Assembly: GCA_964652775.1 (NCBI GenBank)
Contig: CAZZAM010000008.1
Span: 43,317-107,316 of the forward strand
DNA: 64,000 bases
DNA from: an uncultured candidatus Brocadiaceae bacterium
GTDB lineage: Bacteria > Planctomycetota > UBA11346
Direction: 5' to 3'
Part shown: one piece after another, positions 5,398 to 63,148 of the stretch
Position numbering within the stretch: position 1 is the first letter of the stretch
How the letters are laid out: each line of letters opens with the position of its first letter
Notes under the pieces: generated by a model
Told to the model about the DNA's origin: nothing
The model's database searches: none
The model's input: the letters and a program-made list of their open reading frames with translations, nothing else
Program-made: the position numbers and the translations under genes

Positions 5398-5428
5398 CAG
5401 CCACGCTGGAGCGTGGCGTTCCCAGGCC
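5398..5428. repeat. 31-nt hairpin repeat (family I, copy 1)
   Basis: CAGCCACGCTGGAGCGTGGCGTTCCCAGGCC is identical to 40486-40516. It contains a 7-bp stem (CCACGCT/AGCGTGG) with a GG loop and abuts the mutM stop codon at 5430-5432. Confidence 0.85.
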
Positions 5429-7278: not shown

Positions 7279-7428
7279 GAAATGCCAAATGCTGGAATGC
7301 TGGAATGGATGCGGTGAATAAGCACGACTTACCTGACCGAACAAATAGCTCCTCAGCGGCCTATCCGAACACCCAGCGCTGATTTCTAACACATTCAAGC
7401 ATTCCAGCATTCCAGCATTTGGCATTTC
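7279..7428. repeat. octamer-arm hairpin (family A, GGAATGCT words)
   Basis: Left arm 7279-7307 (GAAATGCCAAATGCTGGAATGCTGGAATG) is the perfect 29-nt reverse complement of right arm 7400-7428. The spacer is 92 nt. It lies between the FHA-like gene stop and the permease GTG start. Confidence 0.9.
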
Positions 7429-9464: not shown

Positions 9465-9469
9465 ACACA

Positions 9470-9568
9470 GAAATGTCGAATGCTCGAATGTCGAATGCTC
9501 GAATAATTTAAAAGAAACGTCAGCGGCCGATGATTCTCAACATTCGAGCATTCGAGCATTCTACATTC
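9470..9568. repeat. octamer-arm hairpin (family A variant, CGAATGCT/CGAATGT words)
   Basis: Left arm GAAATGTCGAATGCTCGAATGTCGAATGCTCGAAT (9470-9504) is imperfectly complementary to ATTCTCAACATTCGAGCATTCGAGCATTCTACATTC (9533-9568). It lies between convergent genes. Confidence 0.8.
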
Positions 9569-13216: not shown

Positions 13217-13329
13217 GCCAGCGCAGCCTAGTCGGTGGCAGACCTTGGGTAGTCCCCCTCCAACAGCCCCACCTGACGTGCATCACCTTCCACTCCGCGC
13301 ACAAGGTCGTTCAACCAATCCGAGCGGGG

Positions 13330-13430
13330 TTGTCCACAGATTTCGCAGATTATGCAGATTTTGCAGGCGCATGGTGGCCCCGAACATGTACTTCGCAATC
13401 TGTGCAATCTGCGAAATCTGTGGATAACAA
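13330..13430. repeat. heptamer-arm hairpin (family B, CGCAGAT words, TTATCC terminus)
   Basis: Left arm TTGTCCACAGATTTCGCAGATTATGCAGATTTTGCAG (13330-13366) pairs with right arm CGCAATCTGTGCAATCTGCGAAATCTGTGGATAACAA (13394-13430). It lies between divergent pilT and the dehydrogenase gene. Confidence 0.85.
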
Positions 13431-19201: not shown

Positions 19202-19382
19202 GGATATCCGCAGATTGCGCAGATGGCGCAGATTTCGATTTCAATTCTGAGTGGCTTGTGAAGCAGCCCTAGCCTCAATGGTATGTGACGGAGCCCTTCA
19301 TAAATTACGATGCCTACACAGGCACTAGGCGGTCAAGATCACGAGCTTCGAAATCTGCGCCATCTGCGAAATCTGTGGATAA
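19202..19382. repeat. heptamer-arm hairpin (family B)
   Basis: Left arm GGATATCCGCAGATTGCGCAGATGGCGCAGATTTCGA (19202-19238) pairs with right arm TCGAAATCTGCGCCATCTGCGAAATCTGTGGATAA (19348-19382), with 20 nt perfectly complementary at the inner ends. The spacer is ~109 nt. It lies between convergent genes. Confidence 0.9.
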
Positions 19383-21459: not shown

Positions 21460-21587
21460 CAAGGCAACCACGGGGGCACGGGGAGCACGGAGGTCACGGG
21501 GAAAAGGCAGGGTGAACAGTGTAGAATCTGCAGTGTTTTCCATTCCCTGTGTCCCCCGTGGCTCCCCGTGTCCCCGTGGTTGCCTTG
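21460..21587. repeat. heptamer-arm hairpin (family D, CACGGGG words, CAAGGCAACC clamp)
   Basis: Left arm CAAGGCAACCACGGGGGCACGGGGAGCACGGAGGTCACGGGGA (21460-21502) pairs with right arm ...GCTCCCCGTGTCCCCGTGGTTGCCTTG (21544-21587). The outer 10-nt clamp is identical to that of element 57272-57420. Confidence 0.85.
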
Positions 21588-24220: not shown

Positions 24221-24351
24221 TTCACACGGAGGAACGGAAGTAACAAAGTCCGGGAGTCTGAGTTACGAATTGCGCCCCGTTCATCCAACGGATGATCAGC
24301 ACCAAATCGGTAAGCCTTTTCTCCTTCGTTACCTCTGTTCCTCCGTGTGAA
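24221..24351. repeat. hairpin (family E, GGAGGAACGGA words)
   Basis: Left arm TTCACACGGAGGAACGGAAGTAACAAAG (24221-24248) pairs with right arm CTTTTCTCCTTCGTTACCTCTGTTCCTCCGTGTGAA (24316-24351). It is related to 61864-61987. Confidence 0.8.
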
Positions 24352-30623: not shown

Positions 30624-30738
30624 GTGAGCCGCCAAGGCGCCAAGATCGCCAAGGAATTCGTGCCTTTCCTCTGTGGATAGGCTTGGTGGCCCAAGCTAAT
30701 CCTTTTTTCTTTGCGTCCTTGGCGTCTTGGCGGCTCAC
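30624..30738. repeat. hairpin (family G, CCAAGGCG/CCAAGAT words)
   Basis: Left arm GTGAGCCGCCAAGGCGCCAAGATCGCCAAGGAA (30624-30656) pairs with right arm TTCTTTGCGTCCTTGGCGTCTTGGCGGCTCAC (30708-30738). It lies between convergent genes. Confidence 0.85.
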
Positions 30739-33986: not shown

Positions 33987-34044
33987 GGCGGGGCTGGAAA
34001 GGTAAGACCTGGCATGGGCGGGCAAGGAGGTGAAACCAAGGCTG

Positions 34045-34100
34045 AAGGAGGAAGGCAGAATGAGGAAAAACACCGCCAGTTTTCATCCTTCTGCCTTCCT
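34045..34100. repeat. hairpin (family F, copy 2)
   Basis: GAAGGAGGAAGGCAGAATGAGGAAAAAC, then the loop ACCGCCA, then GTTTTCATCCTTCTGCCTTCCT. It lies between divergent serS and the M50B-like gene. Confidence 0.85.
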
Positions 34101-34129
34101 ACTTCTGACTTCTCCGTATTCTCTCCCCC

Positions 34130-35729: not shown

Positions 35730-35875
35730 CGACATCATCCCAGCCTGGGGCAACGCCCCAGGACTAGATATCCAAAGAGATCAAGGGCTGAAGGCCCGAC
35801 CCATAATAGATCGGGCCTTCAGCCCTAACCATCATGTCGCACACATTCCTGGGGCGTTGCCCCAGGCTGGGATGG
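35730..35875. repeat. compound triple-hairpin element (family H)
   Basis: The outer arms are themselves palindromes (CCTGGGGCAACGCCCCAGG at 35744-35762 and CCTGGGGCGTTGCCCCAGG at 35848-35866) and are inverted copies of each other. The central part is a perfect 16-bp stem, AGGGCTGAAGGCCCGA (35784-35799) with TCGGGCCTTCAGCCCT (35811-35826). Confidence 0.85.
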
Positions 35876-40485: not shown

Positions 40486-40516
40486 CAGCCACGCTGGAGC
40501 GTGGCGTTCCCAGGCC
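40486..40516. repeat. 31-nt hairpin repeat (family I, copy 2)
   Basis: CAGCCACGCTGGAGCGTGGCGTTCCCAGGCC is identical to 5398-5428. Confidence 0.85.
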
Positions 40517-46631: not shown

Positions 46632-46636
46632 GCGCA

Positions 46637-46774
46637 AAATGTCGAATGCTGGAATGCTGGAATGCTGGAATACCGCAGGTGACCGACGTTTGGTAGACCC
46701 TGCCAAGGAAGTCAGAGCCCCGATCCCCATTCGAACATGCCAGCATTCCAGCATTCCAACATTTGAGGCATTCC
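46637..46774. repeat. octamer-arm hairpin (family A)
   Basis: Left arm AAATGTCGAATGCTGGAATGCTGGAATGCTGGAATA (46637-46672) pairs with right arm CATTCGAACATGCCAGCATTCCAGCATTCCAACATTTGAGGCATTCC (46728-46774). Confidence 0.85.
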
Positions 46775-47737: not shown

Positions 47738-47748
47738 ACCTCTCTGTG

Positions 47749-47887
47749 CCGCAGAGACACAGAGGGCCGCAGAGGGCCGCAGAGGAAATCACTAGCTGGA
47801 TTTCACTGAAGACACCCTCATCTCTCTCGCATCACATAATCCACCAACCACAGATTCTCGTCTCTGCCGCCCTCTGCGGCCCTCTGC
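47749..47887. repeat. hairpin (family C, CCGCAGAGG words)
   Basis: Left arm CCGCAGAGACACAGAGGGCCGCAGAGGGCCGCAGAGG (47749-47785) pairs with right arm TCTCTGCCGCCCTCTGCGGCCCTCTGCGCCTCTGCGG (47851-47887). It ends 23 nt before the histidine kinase ATG. Confidence 0.85.
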
Positions 47888-47909
47888 GCCTCTGCGGCAA
47901 AAGATAAAG

Positions 47910-49647: not shown

Positions 49648-49739
49648 TTTATTGTCCGCAGATTTCGCAGATGACGCAGATTTCGAAGTGTGTATTTCTT
49701 GCTGCTTCGACCTGCGAAATCTGAGTAATCTGCGGATAA
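49648..49739. repeat. heptamer-arm hairpin (family B)
   Basis: Left arm TTATTGTCCGCAGATTTCGCAGATGACGCAGATTTCGAAG (49648-49687) pairs with right arm CTTCGACCTGCGAAATCTGAGTAATCTGCGGATAAC (49704-49739). The spacer is 16 nt. It lies between convergent genes. Confidence 0.85.
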
Positions 49740-54312: not shown

Positions 54313-56829
<2,517 letters not shown>

Positions 56830-56837
56830 GGAATACC

Positions 56838-57260
56838 ATGGAGCTGCTCGCCGAATTCATCGTCGCCACCCCCGCCGAAGCGATCGCCTTCAACGGCGGC
56901 CGCGACATCGAAGCCGCCCTGGTCGCACGCCACAAAGGTTTCACCGAGTTGGAACTCGGCACGCTCTTCGACGCGCTCAAGGGTGCGGACCTCTATTCGA
57001 CCAATCTTGATGTCTTCGAGATCGTCCGCCAGGAAGACGAGGGCGGCGTCATGACCATGCGTATTCCCGAGGCGATGGTCCGCCTGCTCATGGCCTTGGA
57101 TGAAGAGCGCCTGATCGAAGTCGGCGACCTGTGGTCCGACAGCGACGAACTGGGCGAGCGCGATACGATCGAATTATACCGGGTTATTGGCGATCTGGTG
57201 CGCCTGTCACGACGGGCAGCGCGCGAGAACAAGGGGCTGTATGTGTGGAACGCGTCGTAG
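56838..57260 (+). CDS. hypothetical small acidic protein, tightly linked downstream of gyrB
   Basis: 140-aa ORF starting 8 nt after the gyrB stop. It is rich in Asp/Glu and Leu. No domain recognised. Confidence 0.5.
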   Translation: MELLAEFIVATPAEAIAFNGGRDIEAALVARHKGFTELELGTLFDALKGADLYSTNLDVFEIVRQEDEGGVMTMRIPEAMVRLLMALDEERLIEVGDLWSDSDELGERDTIELYRVIGDLVRLSRRAARENKGLYVWNAS

Positions 57261-57271
57261 TCGCATGAGAT

Positions 57272-57420
57272 CAAGGCAACCGCAGAGGCACAGAGGCCGC
57301 TGAGATCGCAGAGGGGAGAGGGATGTCTTGGGCATCCCACATCTCACGTGTGTAGATCGACCAGTCCCAAGAGCCTTTCTCTGCGTCCTCAGCGGCCTCT
57401 GCGCCTCTGCGGTTGCCTTG
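57272..57420. repeat. hairpin (family C words with CAAGGCAACC clamp)
   Basis: Left arm CAAGGCAACCGCAGAGGCACAGAGGCCGCTGAGATCGCAGAGG (57272-57314) pairs with right arm TCTCTGCGTCCTCAGCGGCCTCTGCGCCTCTGCGGTTGCCTTG (57378-57420). By hand, 39 of 43 positions are complementary. Confidence 0.9.
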
Positions 57421-57434
57421 GCTTGCTCGACAGT

Positions 57435-57655
57435 TCAGCGGCCCGCCTCCCGCGCGCTGTACCGATAGAGCACCAACCCTGATAAAATCTTGGGCGCGAA
57501 GAACGTACTCTTCTCCGGCATGACGATGTCGGGATTACTGCGGCCGGCGTCGGCGACGGCCATCAACTCGGCGATCGACACCGGATGCTGGGCGGTAGCG
57601 AGGTCATATTTTCCGGCATCTACTGCTTCTTTCATCTTCGCCATCTCCCATTCGG
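57435..57655 (-). pseudogene. detached duplicate of the 3' end (~73 codons plus stop) of the DUF1015 gene
   Basis: Colinear with 60673-60895. By hand alignment there are ~24 substitutions and no indels in ~222 nt. The peptide ...AEWEMAKMKEAVDAGKYDLATAQHPVSIAELMAVADAGRSNPDIVMPEKSTFFAPKILSGLVLYRYSAREAGR compares with ...AEWELAKMKEAVDAGKYDLAIALHPVSIAELMAVADAGRSNPDIVMPEKSTFFAPKILSGLVLYRHSARAAGR. Confidence 0.8.
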
Positions 57656-57785
57656 CTCAACCACCCGTGCAATAACAGATAACATACGGCAACTTTGGAC
57701 GCCTAGTTTATACTCGCCGAGCATGTACGACTCGTCGTTAGCTCCTTCGCCGCACTAGATCCACATCGTCACCACGAGGCTCACC

Positions 57786-59267
57786 ATGCAGTTCTTCCCC
57801 ACGTTGGGCATCACGCTGGCAGGTTTCGCACTGAGTTGCGGGACAATAGCACTCCCCTCCGTGTGCCAGAGCGCGGACAGCAGCGACGCTGTAACCATAT
57901 GTACGGTGGACAACGCCCCCAAAACGCCCGCCGTAACCGAGCTACCGCTCCAGACGACACTGACCCAGTATGGCATTACCTGGACCTTTGCAGCGCCTGT
58001 CCACATCGGCCAATTCGTCAATGGTGACTGGTATATCGTGGGACCGGCCACCGTGGTCGACATAACGCCGAAGCCAGAGAACGGACGCAATGGCTCGTGC
58101 CGCAACATCACCACCATCGAAAAAATCGGTTTTGATAGTCGTATCCCGCACGGACGCTTCGATCCGGCGCTCGTCCTCCAACTGCCGATCGCGCTCAAGC
58201 CGGGGGATTCCCTGGCCAGCTCGATCAGCGTGGGAAAGGTCGGCGACGGAAGCAAAATGCTCTGGAAACAAGGCGAGATCGTCAGTCCGGTAAAAACCGT
58301 AGCTGTACTCACCTGCCTGACTTCGCCGGTTCCCAAGGACGCCTTTCGGCCAGCGTATTGCGGTAAGGAACACCGCATATTCCTTGCCCGAAACCTCAAG
58401 CGCGAGCTGCTGCCTCGGATCGCACGCACTCCTGGCACGCCGAAACTGGCTGAATACGAACGCATTTTTCAGCGTCCCTGGATTGATGTGGCCATGGACG
58501 AGTTCTGCGCCCCCCTTGAAAACATGCCGGCTTACGGTCGCGAATTCTGCCGCGCGGTGGGCTCAGCCAGCCTGCTCCTCTGCCTGGACTTCACACCGCA
58601 AGAGAAGGAGCACCTGCTGATCAACTTCGTCCAAGTGGGCATCGACCTCTGGGGCTTGGCAGGACAAGGCGCGCAGCCATCGACCTGGAGCGCCATCGGT
58701 GGTCACGCCAACGGCCGCAAGTGGCCGATCCTGTTTGCCGGACTGATGCTTGGCGACGCCGATATGCAACAGCCAACGAAAAAATTTCCCTACCTGCGCT
58801 TTAGCGAAGACACCCAAACCATGTTCGGCCCAAGTTGGACCGGAGCCAACGTGGTCTATGCTGGACACGTGGGCAAAGAGGGACACCCCAAGCACACAGG
58901 ATGGGGAGCCTACGAACACCTGTCGCCCGAGCAGTGGGAGGGTGACATTGGCGAGAATTACCGCCGTTGCTGCACTAGTAGTCCGTGGGTGGCCCAGGCA
59001 CTGGCCGTGCGCATCCTGCACGCAGAAAAACTCTGGAACCACGATGCCTTCCTGGCCTACGTTGATCGCTGGATGACCGAAGACGACAGCGCAATGAATG
59101 CCGCCATCAAGAAGGCCAAGGGCTGGGACTACAACAAAGAATGGTCACGCCAGGGCGCGGTGTGGGATCCGTTTGTCAAAGAATTGTGGCTCGCTAACCG
59201 CAATAATTTGCCGTCTGCACCGGATGGGCATAAAGACCCCAAAGCCGAGGAGACGTGGAAAAAGTAA
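57786..59267 (+). CDS. hypothetical secreted protein (unknown family)
   Basis: 493 aa with a signal-like N-terminus (MQFFPTLGITLAGFALSCGTIALPSV). It is Trp/Gly-rich and I recognise no domain. It is the first gene of the block bounded by the DUF1015 duplication. Confidence 0.55.
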   Translation: MQFFPTLGITLAGFALSCGTIALPSVCQSADSSDAVTICTVDNAPKTPAVTELPLQTTLTQYGITWTFAAPVHIGQFVNGDWYIVGPATVVDITPKPENGRNGSCRNITTIEKIGFDSRIPHGRFDPALVLQLPIALKPGDSLASSISVGKVGDGSKMLWKQGEIVSPVKTVAVLTCLTSPVPKDAFRPAYCGKEHRIFLARNLKRELLPRIARTPGTPKLAEYERIFQRPWIDVAMDEFCAPLENMPAYGREFCRAVGSASLLLCLDFTPQEKEHLLINFVQVGIDLWGLAGQGAQPSTWSAIGGHANGRKWPILFAGLMLGDADMQQPTKKFPYLRFSEDTQTMFGPSWTGANVVYAGHVGKEGHPKHTGWGAYEHLSPEQWEGDIGENYRRCCTSSPWVAQALAVRILHAEKLWNHDAFLAYVDRWMTEDDSAMNAAIKKAKGWDYNKEWSRQGAVWDPFVKELWLANRNNLPSAPDGHKDPKAEETWKK

Positions 59268-59334
59268 CCGCGCGCTTCACCGCAGCCGTGGTTGACGAAT
59301 CCCGGCTCTGACCATCAGTTGCAGGAACCACCGC

Positions 59335-60606
59335 ATGCGAGCATCGAGGATGACCGCCATGAATCCCACCGCACCAGTCATCGCACTCAACGGCGGGAAA
59401 CCCGCCAAGACTACGCCGTACGGCACCGGCTCGCGCTTTAACAGCGAGGAAGAAGAAGCCGCGGTGGCCGCGATCCGCAGCCAGAAACTCTGGTATAAAC
59501 AGGGCGGCACGCGTGTGCTCGCCACTGAAAAGACGATCTGCGAACTGTGGAACACGAAGCATGCGATTCTTTGTTCATCTGGCTGCGCCGCGGTACACAC
59601 GGCACTGGTCATGTGTGGTGTTGGTCCTGGCGATGAGGTGATTGTGAATCCGGTTTCTGACTGGGGCTCGCTAATGGGCATTCTCGCCTTGGGCGCCACG
59701 CCCGTGTTCTGCGACATCGATGCTGACACCTATAGCCTCGATCCGCAGTGCGTTGAGCGCGCGATCACAGCGCGAACCCGCGCCATCGAACTGGTCCACC
59801 TCTCCGGCTATCCAGCCCATGTGCAGCAGATTGTCGCCATGGCGCACGCACGAGGCATCAAAGTCATTGAAGACTGTGCGCAGTCGCCGCTGGCCTCAGT
59901 TGGTGGGCGCGTGCTCGGAACCTTCGCCGATGTCGGGGCGTTTTCGACCAACGACTCCAAACACGTGTCATGTGGCGAGGGCGGATTCGTCATTACGAGC
60001 GATGACATCATGGCGAGCATCGCACGCCTATTTATTGACAAGGCCTACAGTCGAGATGCCCAGCGCGGTCGCACCGACGTCGCGTTTCTTGGCTTCAACT
60101 ACCGCTTGTCTGAACTCAGCGCTGCTGTGCTTGATGTGCAGCTACGGAAACTTCCTAAACAACTCAAACAACGACGGGTCTATGCGGAACGCTTGCTCGC
60201 GGGTCTCGCTGGCGTCGCTGGTTACACCGCATTGCAGACGTCACCAGAAACACAGGGCGGTTACTGGACCGTTCTCGGTCACCTCGACCTGAGCCAGTTC
60301 CGCGTCTCGCGCGATGACATCGTGAAGGCCTTACACGCCGAAGGTATTCCGGTCTGGGCTGCGCTTGCGCCAGCGCGAACGCTCTACGGCATTAGCGTGG
60401 TGCAAAGCGGCATCTTCTCGCCGTACCAACGCGGTGGACGAGCCAGTTCATTGCCCGACAAGGCCTGGCGACCCGAAGATTTTCCAGTTGCCGAGCGGAT
60501 TGTCGATTCCGTCCTACCCTTGCACTGCAGTCCGTTTTTTAGCGCACGTGATGCGGACGAGACCGCCAGCGGCGTGCGCAAGGTTCTGCAGCATTACCAC
60601 GCGTGA
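59335..60606 (+). CDS. DegT/DnrJ/EryC1/StrS family aminotransferase
   Basis: Family-typical blocks: ...HAILCSSGCAAVHTALVMCGVGPGDEVIV, ...EDCAQS... and FSTNDSKHVSCGEGG (PLP Lys). The start is among the Mets at 59335, 59350 and 59359. Confidence 0.8.
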   Translation: MRASRMTAMNPTAPVIALNGGKPAKTTPYGTGSRFNSEEEEAAVAAIRSQKLWYKQGGTRVLATEKTICELWNTKHAILCSSGCAAVHTALVMCGVGPGDEVIVNPVSDWGSLMGILALGATPVFCDIDADTYSLDPQCVERAITARTRAIELVHLSGYPAHVQQIVAMAHARGIKVIEDCAQSPLASVGGRVLGTFADVGAFSTNDSKHVSCGEGGFVITSDDIMASIARLFIDKAYSRDAQRGRTDVAFLGFNYRLSELSAAVLDVQLRKLPKQLKQRRVYAERLLAGLAGVAGYTALQTSPETQGGYWTVLGHLDLSQFRVSRDDIVKALHAEGIPVWAALAPARTLYGISVVQSGIFSPYQRGGRASSLPDKAWRPEDFPVAERIVDSVLPLHCSPFFSARDADETASGVRKVLQHYHA

Positions 60607-60620
60607 TCCACCTGCGTTTT

Positions 60621-60657
60621 TTCGAAATCATCTCCATCTGCGCAATCTGTGGATAAC
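60621..60657. repeat. solo right arm of family B at the edge of the inserted block
   Basis: TTCGAAATCATCTCCATCTGCGCAATCTGTGGATAAC. No matching left arm lies upstream, because the DegT coding sequence ends at 60606. Confidence 0.75.
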
Positions 60658-60672
60658 CCTGCGAATGTATGC

Positions 60673-61845
60673 TCAGCGTCCAGCAGCCCGTGCGCTGTGC
60701 CGATAGAGCACCAACCCTGACAGAATTTTCGGCGCGAAAAACGTGCTCTTCTCCGGCATGACGATGTCGGGATTGCTGCGGCCAGCGTCGGCGACGGCCA
60801 TCAATTCGGCGATCGACACCGGATGCAGGGCGATGGCGAGGTCGTATTTCCCGGCATCGACCGCTTCTTTCATCTTCGCCAGCTCCCACTCGGCGTAGTA
60901 GTCGAAGTGCTTGGGATCCTTGATCATCGCGTGGGTGAGACCCAGAACCGGATACAGTTCGCGTTCCAGAATCGCGCAGTCGAGGCTGCCGCGCGGATCA
61001 GTGGGAACAGTCTTGGCCTTCAGCGCAAAGCAGCCGCTCTTGTGGTAGATGCGGAACTCGCGGTGCGGCGGTGTGTCCCAGGTCGCGGGCGTGAGTTGCA
61101 ACTGTGCTTTGATTTCAGTGAATAATTTCACGCCGGTGACAAGGCGGTTGTAGGCCTGGATCGCAGCGCGTTCGACGACGTAGGCCAAGCAATGGCTCTG
61201 CCCGCCAAGCAAGGCTGCGTGATAGCGATGATGGCCATCAGCGATGTAGAGGGGGTTCTGTCCGACCAAACGCTGCAACTGCTGGCCGTCAGGCGAACTC
61301 TCGGGGACCAGGAAGATGCGACTCGCGATGCCGTCAAGATCGTTGAGACCTTTGAAGTCGCTGATGAAATCGTAGTCGGGCTTGTGCGACGAGGCGATCT
61401 TGTGAAGCACCGGCGTGATCGGCGAGCGGGTGAGCAGGAACACCGGCTCCAAGGTGACGCCGGTCTGCTTAGTCAGCTTCAAGCGGCCCTGCACTTTTTC
61501 GTCGAAGACCTTTTCGTGACGAATGACTTGGCCGGCGGGATAGTCGGACACTTCGACCGCAGCGAAAACGCCAATGCGCGACTGCGCTCCTTTGGCTGAC
61601 TGCCAACGCTGCTCATAGACGATAAAATGCGGTTTATCGAGCGGTTTGAACGAGCCGTTGGTCAATCGCTTGAGTGACCCAAGCGGATCGGGGCCAAGCG
61701 TCACGTGCCAGAGATTGTCCGGCTCGGACTTGAGCAACGCCTCCAGCGGCGAACCCTCGCGAATGACGTCGTACGGTGGCGCAGTGACGCGAACGACGGC
61801 CGCTGAGGAGGGAATATGGCCCGTAAGGCCGGCGATCTGGGTCAT
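60673..61845 (-). CDS. DUF1015 domain-containing protein
   Basis: 390 aa. ...VTAPPYDVI..., IADGHHRYHAAL and C-terminal MPEKSTFFAPKILSGLV are typical DUF1015 blocks. Confidence 0.8.
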   Translation of the reverse strand: MTQIAGLTGHIPSSAAVVRVTAPPYDVIREGSPLEALLKSEPDNLWHVTLGPDPLGSLKRLTNGSFKPLDKPHFIVYEQRWQSAKGAQSRIGVFAAVEVSDYPAGQVIRHEKVFDEKVQGRLKLTKQTGVTLEPVFLLTRSPITPVLHKIASSHKPDYDFISDFKGLNDLDGIASRIFLVPESSPDGQQLQRLVGQNPLYIADGHHRYHAALLGGQSHCLAYVVERAAIQAYNRLVTGVKLFTEIKAQLQLTPATWDTPPHREFRIYHKSGCFALKAKTVPTDPRGSLDCAILERELYPVLGLTHAMIKDPKHFDYYAEWELAKMKEAVDAGKYDLAIALHPVSIAELMAVADAGRSNPDIVMPEKSTFFAPKILSGLVLYRHSARAAGR

Positions 61846-61863: not shown

Positions 61864-61987
61864 TCACATGGAGAAACGGAGGAACGGAGATCGCAATGGC
61901 ATCGGGATTCGCTCGCCACCTCAATGAATGAACAAAGATTGTGTTCACAGGCCATCTGCTGCTCCGGTTCTCCGTTTCTCCATGTGA
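61864..61987. repeat. hairpin (family E)
   Basis: Left arm TCACATGGAGAAACGGAGGAACGGAGATC (61864-61892) pairs with right arm GCTCCGGTTCTCCGTTTCTCCATGTGA (61961-61987). It lies between accD and the DUF1015 gene. Confidence 0.8.
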
Positions 61988-62007: not shown

Positions 62008-62856
62008 TCAGACGACGGCTGGAGCCTGCAAATAGACGAGTAGACGCGCCAGCTCGGCCTTCAGATCCTGTCGTGAGACGATCAGATCAACCTGGCCATG
62101 CTTGAGTAGGAACTCCGAAGTCTGGAATCCGTCGGGCAATTCCTGTTTGATCGTTTCCTGAATCACGCGTGCGCCGGTAAAACCGATCATCGCTTTCGGC
62201 TCCGCGATAATCACGTCACCAAGCGATGCGTAGCTGGCCATGACGCCGGCCATGGTCGGATTGGTCAGCACGCTGATGAAGGGAACCCTCGCTTCGCGCA
62301 GACGCGCCAAGGCAGCCGAGGTCTTGGCCATCTGCATGAGCGACAGCACGCCTTCCTGCATGCGCGCGCCGCCGGAGGCCGAGATCACGATCGCCGGAAT
62401 GCGCCGCTTGAGACATTGCTCGAACTGGCGGGTCAGCTTTTCACCAACCACCGATCCCATCGATCCGCCATTGAACGAGAAGTCACTGACGCCCAGGCCG
62501 ACCATCTGGCCAGACAGTTTGCCGCAGCCAGTCAGGATCGCATCCTTGAGCCCTGTTTTGCTCTGCTGCTGGGCGATGCGCTCGGGGTAGGTTTTCCCAT
62601 CGACGAACTTGAGCGGGTCGCCCGAGGTCATGTTGACGTCCCATTCCTCCCAGGTGTCCTCATCGATGAGCGAGGCGACGCGGCGACGCGACAGCATCTT
62701 GAAGTGATGGTTGCACTCCGGGCAAGTGTCCAGGCGCTCTTCGACCAGGCGCTTGAACACCGTCTTCAGACAACCGGGGCATTTCTCCCACAGACCATCG
62801 GGAATCTTCTTGGGGTCACGGCCGGTGGCACCGCGGCGCAGGCGATCGAGGACCAT
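62008..62856 (-). CDS. accD: acetyl-CoA carboxylase carboxyltransferase subunit beta
   Basis: N-terminal zinc ribbon (CPGC...CPEC) and a carboxyltransferase domain (GGSMGSVVGEK, SGGARMQEG). Confidence 0.9.
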   Translation of the reverse strand: MVLDRLRRGATGRDPKKIPDGLWEKCPGCLKTVFKRLVEERLDTCPECNHHFKMLSRRRVASLIDEDTWEEWDVNMTSGDPLKFVDGKTYPERIAQQQSKTGLKDAILTGCGKLSGQMVGLGVSDFSFNGGSMGSVVGEKLTRQFEQCLKRRIPAIVISASGGARMQEGVLSLMQMAKTSAALARLREARVPFISVLTNPTMAGVMASYASLGDVIIAEPKAMIGFTGARVIQETIKQELPDGFQTSEFLLKHGQVDLIVSRQDLKAELARLLVYLQAPAVV

Positions 62857-62972
62857 CGAGGAACGGCTCCTGGGGAAGCCGGGATCCTATGACCGATGAT
62901 GGGCCGGAAAGGGGGAGAATCGCCTGGGAGCGCCGCACCGGTGCGGCTAACATTAGGTTAGAAATAGGGCTT

Positions 62973-63077
62973 GAATGGCGAATGCTCGAATGGCGAATGC
63001 TCGAATGGACACTGAAAAGGCCAAATGCGATCAATTTTCGACATTCGAGCATTCAAACATTCGCGCATTCGACATTC
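62973..63077. repeat. octamer-arm hairpin (family A variant, CGAATGCT/CGAATGG words)
   Basis: Left arm GAATGGCGAATGCTCGAATGGCGAATGCTCGAATGG (62973-63008) pairs with right arm CGACATTCGAGCATTCAAACATTCGCGCATTCGACATTC (63039-63077). It lies between divergent accD and the SH3b gene. Confidence 0.8.
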
Positions 63078-63148
63078 TCCTGCGCTCCCAGGTGGCGCAT
63101 TGCACCCCCGTCCACCGCTCCTAACTTGCGCGTTTCCAGGAGCTTCCC

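Follow-up and report, generated by a model that had tools for sequence, protein, structure and literature searches.

A two-gene block between two copies of a DUF1015 gene 3' end in a candidatus Brocadiaceae bacterium: a probable recombination scar without a recognisable mobile element

The window, that is, the whole stretch of 64,000 nucleotides that was analysed, contained a direct repeat formed by the 3' end of a DUF1015 gene (Table 1). The two copies, 57435-57656 and 60673-60894, were both located on the minus strand and were aligned by blastn over 222 nt without gaps (24 mismatches, 89.2% identity, E ~1e-75), with identical blocks of 19-29 nt. The orphan copy (the stub) was situated 3.2 kb from the intact DUF1015 gene, and each copy closed with a TGA codon (57435-57437 in the stub and 60673-60675 in the intact gene). 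On the 3' side the homology stopped at the stop codon, past which the flanks of the two copies were unrelated (~3/14 matches), and on the 5' side it stopped at 57656/60894, corresponding to codon 318 of 390. The flanks were unrelated on all outer sides of the two copies, and an in-frame TGA (57659-57657, minus strand) was situated immediately upstream of the stub. The structural part of the original prediction was correct: a complete, full-length DUF1015 gene is present, and a 73-codon stub lies beyond two unrelated genes. The duplicated 3' end in the same orientation, the lack of indels, the 24 substitutions, and a homology beginning exactly at the stop codon and ending inside the coding region were all reproduced. 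Six to seven amino acid changes had been claimed, and the codon alignment gave five.

Table 1. Features at and around the duplicated DUF1015 3' end (window positions).
Feature	Position	Strand	Remarks
gyrB	54400..56829	+	Far side of the stub; Pfam HATPase_c, DNA_gyraseB, Toprim and DNA_gyraseB_C on the identical contig
p140 (140-aa ORF)	56838..57260	+	No Pfam family; directly after gyrB, convergent with the stub
Complete hairpin, 149 nt	57272..57420		42-nt arms of GCAGAGGC-type octamer units
Orphan stub	57435..57656	-	Last 73 codons and stop of a DUF1015 allele; pseudogene fragment, with M, T, Q and Y as derived residues at conserved sites
Spacer, 129 nt	57657..57785		Upstream region of p493; single non-homologous joint at 57656/57657
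p493 (cargo gene 1, 493 aa)	57786..59267	+	N-terminal signal-like segment; widespread family without a Pfam model
DegT (cargo gene 2)	59335..60606	+	DegT/DnrJ/EryC1-type PLP aminotransferase; Pfam match E 4e-75
Degenerate hairpin, ATCTGTGGATAA family	60603..60657		13-nt remnant of one arm, T6 run, 37-nt arm
3'-end copy in use	60673..60894	-	Last 73 codons and stop of the intact DUF1015 gene; family-conserved states kept
Intact DUF1015 gene	60673..61845	-	390 aa; end-to-end alignment with homologues
accD	62008..62856	-	Carboxyltransferase beta; conserved partner upstream of DUF1015 among related Planctomycetota

Two genes on the opposite strand were predicted between the copies and were found there, namely the p493 gene, the product of which had no Pfam match, and the gene of a DegT-type aminotransferase. 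Both cargo genes were intact, and the intergenic gaps within the block were 129, 67 and 66 nt. The fold of p493 was modelled with confidence (pLDDT 88.6), yet a fold search gave no PDB match better than E 0.09. Among the DegT homologues of more than 53% identity, all those with a taxon name belonged to Planctomycetota or Phycisphaerae. The cargo was host-like in both composition and codon usage: the GC content was flat at 0.57-0.61, the same as in the flanks, and the codon-usage z values of p493 (-0.30) and DegT (-0.64) were typical of the genome. A scan for promoters and terminators showed nothing above the shuffled background.

A hairpin was located beyond the stop codon of each copy. The complete hairpin filled the spacer between p140 and the stub, 11 nt from the p140 stop and 14 nt from the stub stop, and its fold was calculated at -102 kcal/mol (z = -12). 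The element beyond the stop of the intact gene had been described as a solo arm of another family (family B). Its 37-nt arm ended 15 nt from the DUF1015 stop, and 13 nt left over from the second arm, TGATCCACCTGCG, overlapped the DegT stop and were still paired with the outermost part of the long arm. The element was thus an internally deleted full hairpin, and a breakpoint at a 'solo arm' was ruled out by the presence of the second-arm remnant. The ATCTGTGGATAA hairpin family was also considered as a lineage marker for a donor of the same lineage, and was dropped since its 21-mer arm was present in at least 120 metagenome contigs.

The junctions recurred in three replicate groundwater metagenomes (Hain_H51 R1, R2 and R3) that had been assembled independently, the contigs matching at 99.8-100%. 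The entire block was covered by the R3 contig at 100% identity. One R1 contig independently covered the region from gyrB through p140 and the stub to p493, a second R1 contig covered p493, DegT, DUF1015 and accD, and the R2 contig extended from p493 to accD. Hence, both junctions, the support of which had been named as a point to check, were present in the replicate assemblies R1-R3, and mis-assembly was very unlikely. An assembly or binning artefact fusing two strains' versions of the locus might be suspected from the low coverage of the ENA contigs (3-4x) and from the break of one replicate assembly at the boundary of the hairpin and the stub (contig L091 ends at window position 57427). However, the block was traversed by a single R3 contig and the junctions were crossed independently by R1 and R2 contigs. 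Moreover, copies that differ at 24 sites would not collapse or chimerise leaving unique sequence on all four sides, so an artefact of this kind was scarcely credible.

The differences between the copies were distributed over the first, second and third positions of the 73 codons as 3/3/18. By the Nei-Gojobori method, 18.5 synonymous and 5.5 non-synonymous differences were counted, and the dN, dS and dN/dS values were 0.033, 0.50 and 0.068, respectively. The dN/dS comparison had been proposed as a check, and the value obtained was low; however, a very low pairwise dN/dS of a gene and its own fragment does not prove that both were functional. The stub and the intact end differed in 5 of 73 amino acids (93% identity). 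When seven relatives were used as outgroups, 15 differences could be polarised, 11 of them falling on the stub and four on the intact copy. All four polarisable amino acid changes were on the stub, and all four changes of the intact copy were silent. Three amino acid changes of the stub affected positions (L, L and H) that were identical in 11 of the 11 relatives compared. The stub changes were distributed over the codon positions as 3/2/6, and nine of the 11 were GC to AT. Since the polarised changes were concentrated on the stub, hit conserved residues and were mostly GC to AT, the stub is a decaying pseudogene. A 66-aa ORF was reported at the stub by gene callers, and a functional small ORF was considered; no evidence for it was found, and the substitutions at invariant residues spoke against it.

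The stub lineage alone was compatible with neutral decay (P = 0.065). A model in which the copies were identical at the start and the stub has been neutral since then was rejected by the silent excess over the whole pair, with P of 0.0002-0.004 under uniform mutation and of only ~0.01-0.03 under a strongly GC to AT biased spectrum. After the changes were polarised and the GC to AT bias was allowed for, most of the low dN/dS signal was consistent with stub decay. The earlier proposal that both copies had evolved as functional coding sequence thus received moderate support only: it was favoured by the silent excess (P 0.0002-0.03, depending on the mutation model), but the polarised changes mostly reflected stub decay. 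Part of the divergence of the copies appears to be older than their joining.

The same counts bear on a purely in situ origin of the block. It could have arisen by a tandem duplication of the segment comprising the spacer, p493, DegT, the hairpin and the DUF1015 3' end, after which the second copy of the cargo was lost, or by a duplication accompanying an insertion, and all 24 differences would then be later. The ratio of 11 changes on the stub to four silent changes on the functional copy was close to the 1 : 0.4 expected over equal time for a neutral stub and a gene accepting silent changes only. The spread of the stub changes over codon positions and their mostly GC to AT direction were also as under neutral decay, and the host-like cargo together with mature hairpins at both gene ends suggested an old arrangement. 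However, such an origin requires a deletion that ended no more than 2 nt from the stop codon of the stub, an endpoint that no selection would account for. In addition, the non-synonymous share (5.5/24) was below expectation at the P values given above for both mutation models, and two DUF1015 pieces were found in none of 80 related species. An in situ origin was therefore considered rather unlikely.

The copies were each other's closest relatives. They shared 93% of their amino acids, whereas the nearest database protein reached ~83% over this region and 82% over the full gene, and they had derived residues in common (A-K, SNPD and an S-A-R-x-A-G-R tail). Their 89% nucleotide identity and the identical blocks of 19-29 nt bear on whether a donor would have been near enough for RecA-type exchange. 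The mutual closeness and the common derived residues pointed to the same or a very close lineage as the source.

The neighbourhood was searched for in 185,579 species genomes, 5.8 billion proteins and the contigs of the three closest DUF1015 genes. The closest DUF1015 among the 5.8 billion proteins was 82% identical in amino acids and had different downstream genes. The order accD-DUF1015 was conserved in relatives, and synteny broke at the end of the DUF1015 gene in every relative examined. There, the gene was followed by an EVE protein and an opposite-strand RsuA-like gene, by a HisKA/response-regulator gene, or by an EVE protein and LacI; gyrB, DegT and p493 were all absent from the vicinity of DUF1015 in these relatives. 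With synteny breaking at the gene end, two related genomes are expected to have homology only up to the stop codon. In 80 species and in the three closest metagenome contigs, the sequence up to 10 kb from DUF1015 contained neither DegT nor p493, an absence that is weak evidence as the databases are without close relatives. With the closest database DUF1015 at only 82% amino acid identity, the searches yielded neither an empty-site genome nor one of the donor type, with DegT and p493 natively downstream of DUF1015. A junction-specific scan of JGI metagenomes gave 0 matches. The idea that the cargo pair might be met elsewhere was not borne out: the two families were not adjacent in the contigs examined around p493 homologues and DegT orthologues, and no second copy of the pair occurred in the 64-kb window. 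As DegT and p493 were not neighbours in these contigs, the supposed donor neighbourhood was not independently supported.

It had been proposed originally that the block was the footprint of an element integrated into the 3' end of the gene and supplying a surrogate end, as phage 21 and e14 do. Accordingly, the block would be the remnant of a site-specific integrative island with an attP that carried a replacement DUF1015 3' end, as in the e14 and phage 21 type at icd, the integrase and other genes having been deleted later. As a general rule, the attP of an element residing in a gene 3' end carries a replacement end, and the layout of the block was that of the attL and attR expected when attP supplies the end of the target gene (PMC10111431). 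The recombinant DUF1015 gene was intact, a silent-biased divergence would suit a surrogate end that had evolved in another host, and the internally deleted hairpin beside the DegT stop showed that deletion has happened at that edge. However, no integrase, transposase, phage gene, tRNA or Rfam RNA was found anywhere in the 64 kb, which agreed with the earlier statement that integrase and transposase were lacking. There was no recombinase among the 47 ORFs of the window, and only p493 and DegT lay between the repeats. Owing to the short gaps between the intact cargo genes, no recombinase remnant was left in the block either, and the cargo itself was host-like. The repeat showed no clean identical core at its 5' edge, the uninterrupted matches there measuring 5, 6 and 19 nt; the longest identical run, of 29 nt, was internal, and stub decay could have erased a core.

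No recurrence of DUF1015 as a target was detected in mobile DNA. DUF1015 fragments were absent from IMG/VR. The phage collection held no DUF1015 stubs, its matches being full-length genes in UNVERIFIED_ORG Listeria records and one gene cut by a contig end, and the plasmids held none, the matches there being annotated full DUF1015 genes or lying in very large replicons. None of 80 related species had a further DUF1015 piece at a distance of up to 10 kb from the gene. The integrating element with a surrogate 3' end was thus left unsupported, and the island remnant was considered clearly improbable.

The best reading of the block, which we regard as narrowly probable, was an integrase-independent recombination with the DNA of a close relative that had a different neighbourhood downstream of DUF1015. 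We infer both the mechanism and the related donor. In the layout of the locus, a single non-homologous joint at 57656/57657 inside the gene and 222 nt of duplicated homology around the insert were arranged as expected of homology-driven additive recombination. About 3.24 kb would have been added to the locus, with the last 73 codons of DUF1015 serving as the homology and with no need for a dedicated integrase. The added segment would consist of one DUF1015 3' end and the hairpin downstream of it, DegT, p493 and the 129-nt spacer. The simplest mechanism would be a single crossover of Campbell type, in which a circularised DNA fragment recombined with the chromosomal gene, and a one-sided homologous exchange combined with one illegitimate joint would have an equivalent outcome. 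The donor was probably a closely related planctomycete with DegT and p493, not p140 and gyrB, downstream of DUF1015. The event would have left an intact DUF1015 gene, the cargo behind it and, beside the other neighbourhood, a second gene end, promoterless and truncated at its 5' side, which has decayed as a pseudogene since then. In E. coli, when a circular molecule with a partial gene end underwent single crossovers with the chromosome, the insert came to be flanked by gene-end duplications of 109-950 bp, and such events were far commoner (56 of 60 clones) than true homology-facilitated illegitimate recombination (PMC3240628). For T6SS and Rhs loci, the latter has been put forward to account for 3' regions that are displaced (PMC5361080). 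Against the integrase-independent reading of the block, the agent may have been a recombinase supplied in trans or lost by deletion since. The alternative offered in the original prediction, the import of a foreign allele's 3' end with cargo, fitted better than the integrating element, but no donor arrangement was found. It was also observed, against recombination with a relative, that the polarised counts (11 on the stub and four on the intact copy) also agree with copies that did not yet differ when the event took place.

It could further be imagined that the block is the footprint of an unrecognised route of gene addition in Planctomycetota. Such a route would be recombinase-independent or mobilised in trans, would act on conserved genes, DUF1015 being one, at their 3' ends, would supply a gene end of its own, and might involve the ubiquitous octamer-periodic intergenic hairpins 14-15 nt past both stops. 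We consider this highly improbable. The block is a real but ordinary recombination scar, with no recognisable mobile element and no new system. It provides a clean natural example of a chromosome gaining genes without mobile-element machinery. Its seam was kept as a dated pseudogene stub, which could mark gene-order variants in the Planctomycetota of Hainich groundwater.

The block was compared with three known systems. As with phage 21, e14 and NC-SV at E. coli icd, the target was kept intact by a supplied 3' end, the original end was left at the far side and the differences were mostly silent. Unlike the icd elements, the block contained no integrase, excisionase, phage or conjugation gene, was only 3.2 kb long with two intact genes of host-like composition, and had no recognisable identical core, and DUF1015 was not a recurrent target. 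The Rhs, CDI and T6SS effector loci (PMC5361080) likewise have a conserved upstream anchor, a new 3' sequence that enters with cargo, and a former 3' region displaced downstream as an orphan. In those loci, however, the incoming 3' end is a different toxin domain accompanied by its immunity gene, and arrays expand by repetition, whereas here the incoming end encoded the same DUF1015 C-terminus (93% identical), the cargo was metabolic or secreted, and there was a single stub. Finally, Campbell-type integration at E. coli lacZ (PMC3240628) differs in that the present block is natural and old (11% divergence of the copies), carries chromosomal-looking cargo instead of a plasmid and would have involved a postulated circle, but it shares with the block a direct gene-end duplication around the insert (109-950 bp there, 222 bp here) formed with no site-specific recombinase.

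The repeat that the original prediction had described was recovered by blastn as an ungapped alignment of 222 nt with 24 mismatches (89.2% identity, E about 1e-75), both copies being on the minus strand. One copy comprised the last 73 codons and the TGA of an intact DUF1015 gene (the functional copy), which was aligned end to end with its homologues; the other was an orphan 3′ end (the stub). The similarity ran, as expected, from the stop codon into the coding region, with its 5′ limit at codon 318 (57656/60894), and an in-frame TGA lay directly upstream of the 5′ edge of the stub. The sequences past the two stop codons had been described as unrelated, and their next 14-15 nt agreed at about 3/14 positions. 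The two opposite-strand genes anticipated between the copies (the cargo: p493, a 493-aa ORF, and a DegT aminotransferase) were both present and intact.

Features of the block and of its surroundings (window coordinates)
Feature	Position	Strand	Description
p140	56838-57260	+	140-aa ORF, no Pfam family
Stub	57435-57656	-	Orphan DUF1015 3′ end
p493	57786-59267	+	493-aa ORF, no Pfam model
DegT	59335-60606	+	DegT/DnrJ/EryC1 aminotransferase, Pfam family match
DUF1015 gene	60673-61845	-	390 aa; Pfam PF06245, E 7.5e-35
3′ end of DUF1015 gene	60673-60894	-	Last 73 codons and TGA
Hairpins, first half	7279-7428, 9469-9562, 13329-13428, 19205-19381, 21460-21587, 24221-24351, 30624-30738, 34038-34111		
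Hairpins, second half	35736-35874, 46635-46766, 47747-47899, 49652-49739, 57272-57420, 60603-60657, 61864-61987, 62959-63084		

The block, which belongs to a Planctomycetota MAG from Hainich groundwater well H51, was compared with contigs of three replicate assemblies, which were 99.8-100% identical to the window and reproduced both junctions. One contig covered the entire block, the gyrB-p140-stub-p493 segment was spanned independently in a second replicate, and other contigs covered p493-DegT-DUF1015-accD. An assembly artefact is therefore very unlikely for the block. At position 3885 of contig L092 of replicate R1 (window 58458), codon 225 of p493 was TAA instead of GAA; this contig had 3x coverage, and the site lay near its end with three further mismatches. 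Either the TAA is an error of sequencing or assembly, or it reflects a variant in the population whose cargo gene is knocked out.

The stub and the gene differed at codon positions 1/2/3 by 3/3/18 substitutions, corresponding to 18.5 synonymous and 5.5 non-synonymous differences (dN 0.033, dS 0.50). The pairwise dN/dS of 0.068 agreed with the mostly silent divergence noted originally, and five amino-acid differences were counted rather than 6-7. The differences were polarised by using seven related DUF1015 genes (57-82% amino-acid identity to that of the window): 11 changes were assigned to the stub and 4 to the functional copy, 4 were ambiguous and 5 were located in the C-terminal tail, which could not be aligned. 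Each of the four amino-acid changes that could be polarised was on the stub, and three of them (L to M, L to Q and H to Y) affected residues shared without exception by the 11 relatives compared. The 11 stub changes, nine of them GC to AT, were distributed over the codon positions as 3/2/6; seven were silent when 4.1 were expected under neutrality (P = 0.065, conditioned on mutation class). These data show that the stub is a decaying pseudogene and that the low pairwise dN/dS overstates the case for two functional histories.

The whole pair was also evaluated under a null model in which the copies were identical at the event, the stub was neutral and the gene was constrained. The P values were 0.0002-0.004 under uniform mutation and 0.011-0.033 if the GC to AT-biased spectrum of the stub was assumed, which favours, short of proof, some divergence predating the joining. 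The proposal that both copies had evolved as functional coding sequence was only moderately supported: the silent excess of the whole pair spoke for it, but the stub lineage alone fitted decay. A tandem duplication followed by a deletion accorded less well with the silent excess, and its deletion endpoint would have to coincide with the stop codon.

The adjacency of DUF1015 to accD was conserved in related Planctomycetota. The downstream side was different in each relative, with an EVE-domain gene followed by a pseudouridine-synthase-like gene, a HisKA/response-regulator gene, or an EVE-domain gene followed by LacI, and gyrB, DegT or p493 was near DUF1015 in none of those examined. The nearest DUF1015 in a 5.8-billion-protein collection was 82% identical. 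The two 3′ ends were each other's nearest relatives (93% at the amino-acid level) and shared residues missing from the 82% homologue, which points to the same lineage, or a very close one, as the probable source of the second copy. A second DUF1015 piece was found at 0 of 80 species loci, IMG/VR contained no DUF1015 sequence, and the matches in phage and plasmid collections were full-length genes in apparent host or chromosomal-size records, or a gene cut by a contig end. In the available data, DUF1015 was therefore not a recurrent integration target. In two GenBank records named 'UNVERIFIED_ORG: Listeria phage LM 4-11-1 / 4-14-1' (OR846716.1 and OR848147.1), DUF1015 genes of nearly full length were present; the DNA of these records resembles host chromosome and not phage. 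Within the family, conservation was highest in the motif VMPEKSTFFAPKILSG, which was invariant in 25 sequences and lay within the C-terminal 73 residues, outside the Pfam-matched stretch of the window's protein (residues 13-279). The p140 ORF began 8 nt past gyrB and had the most genome-typical codon usage of the window (z +1.77); no homologue was found on the contigs of the three closest DUF1015 genes.

About 30 DegT homologues were 53-65% identical, those named by taxon all belonging to Planctomycetota or Phycisphaerae, and the next matches were below 40%. The p493 family, which has no Pfam model, was large (1,976 matches at E<=1e-5 among 8,000 candidates scored) and occurred in several phyla at 50-68% identity, with named MAGs from Planctomycetota, Kiritimatiellae, Acidobacteriota, Anaerolineaceae and Smithellaceae. 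Fusions to dockerin, SLH or Por-secretion-tail domains occurred in part of the family, and the gene contexts were varied, polysaccharide-related and without DegT. Since no p493-family gene adjoined a DegT orthologue in the contexts examined, the cargo does not appear to be a travelling pair. In three contigs a DegT orthologue was followed by a beta-helix protein. The AlphaFold model of p493 was confident (pLDDT 88.6), and it placed a beta-sandwich ahead of a helical domain; no significant fold match was obtained in the PDB (best E 0.09), the closest, weak resemblance being to alpha-toroid polysaccharide lyases of the PL17/PL5 type.

Long hairpins of 74-177 nt, with arms of tandem 8-nt units (AATGCTGG, GCAGAGGC, GCAGATTT, CACGGGG and GGAACGGA types), were present in roughly one third of the window's intergenic regions, 2-60 nt from flanking genes regardless of gene orientation. 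The hairpin in the p140-stub gap was complete and filled that gap (-102 kcal/mol, z -12). The DegT-DUF1015 element, taken originally for a solo family B arm, retained 13 nt of its second arm, which overlapped the DegT stop and paired with the long arm at its outer end; it is a full element with an internal deletion, not a rearrangement breakpoint. The hairpins were considered as a lineage-specific donor marker and rejected as uninformative, because one family's 21-nt arm, ATCTGCGMAATCTGTGGATAA, recurred in at least 120 contigs of metagenomes from many habitats, and both contigs inspected showed the same hairpin architecture. The outer end of this arm, TTATCCACA, is identical to the consensus of the DnaA box in E. 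coli. The sequence CAGCCACGCTGGAGCGTGGCGTTCCCAGGCC, a small palindrome, formed a perfect direct repeat of 31 nt at 5398-5428 and 40486-40516, 35 kb apart.

An integrase-borne surrogate gene end, for which the rule is stated in PMC10111431 and phage 21 and e14 at icd are the examples, would predict the same layout, but it was disfavoured by the absence of mobility genes, of atypical composition and of recurrence at DUF1015. No integrase or transposase family, as had been noted, and no phage family was matched among the window's 47 ORFs of substantial size, which were housekeeping or metabolic (MurC-like ligase, Fpg, DnaJ/GrpE, SerRS, IleRS, acetolactate synthase, BamA, gyrB, accD and others). 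No tRNA, tmRNA or Rfam match was found in the window. The gaps inside the block (129, 67 and 66 nt) left no space for a decayed recombinase gene. The GC content was flat across the block, and the codon usage of the cargo was genome-typical (z -0.30 and -0.64).

The original interpretation was partly supported: its alternative, a recombination importing the 3′ end of an allele together with cargo, was preferred to the phage-like element. We propose one homologous exchange, located in the last 73 codons or farther upstream, combined with one non-homologous joint at 57656/57657, which all data fit; this would be the product of a single crossover of the chromosome with a circular DNA bearing a gene-end fragment. 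Homology would not extend past the stop codon, since the synteny of related genomes is lost at that point. The block is a recombination scar of an already known type. In E. coli lacZ, single crossovers produced gene-end duplications of 109-950 bp flanking the insert (PMC3240628), as compared with the 222-nt repeat here, and were far commoner than true homology-facilitated illegitimate recombination (PMC3240628), which was proposed for the displaced 3′ regions of T6SS/Rhs loci (PMC5361080).
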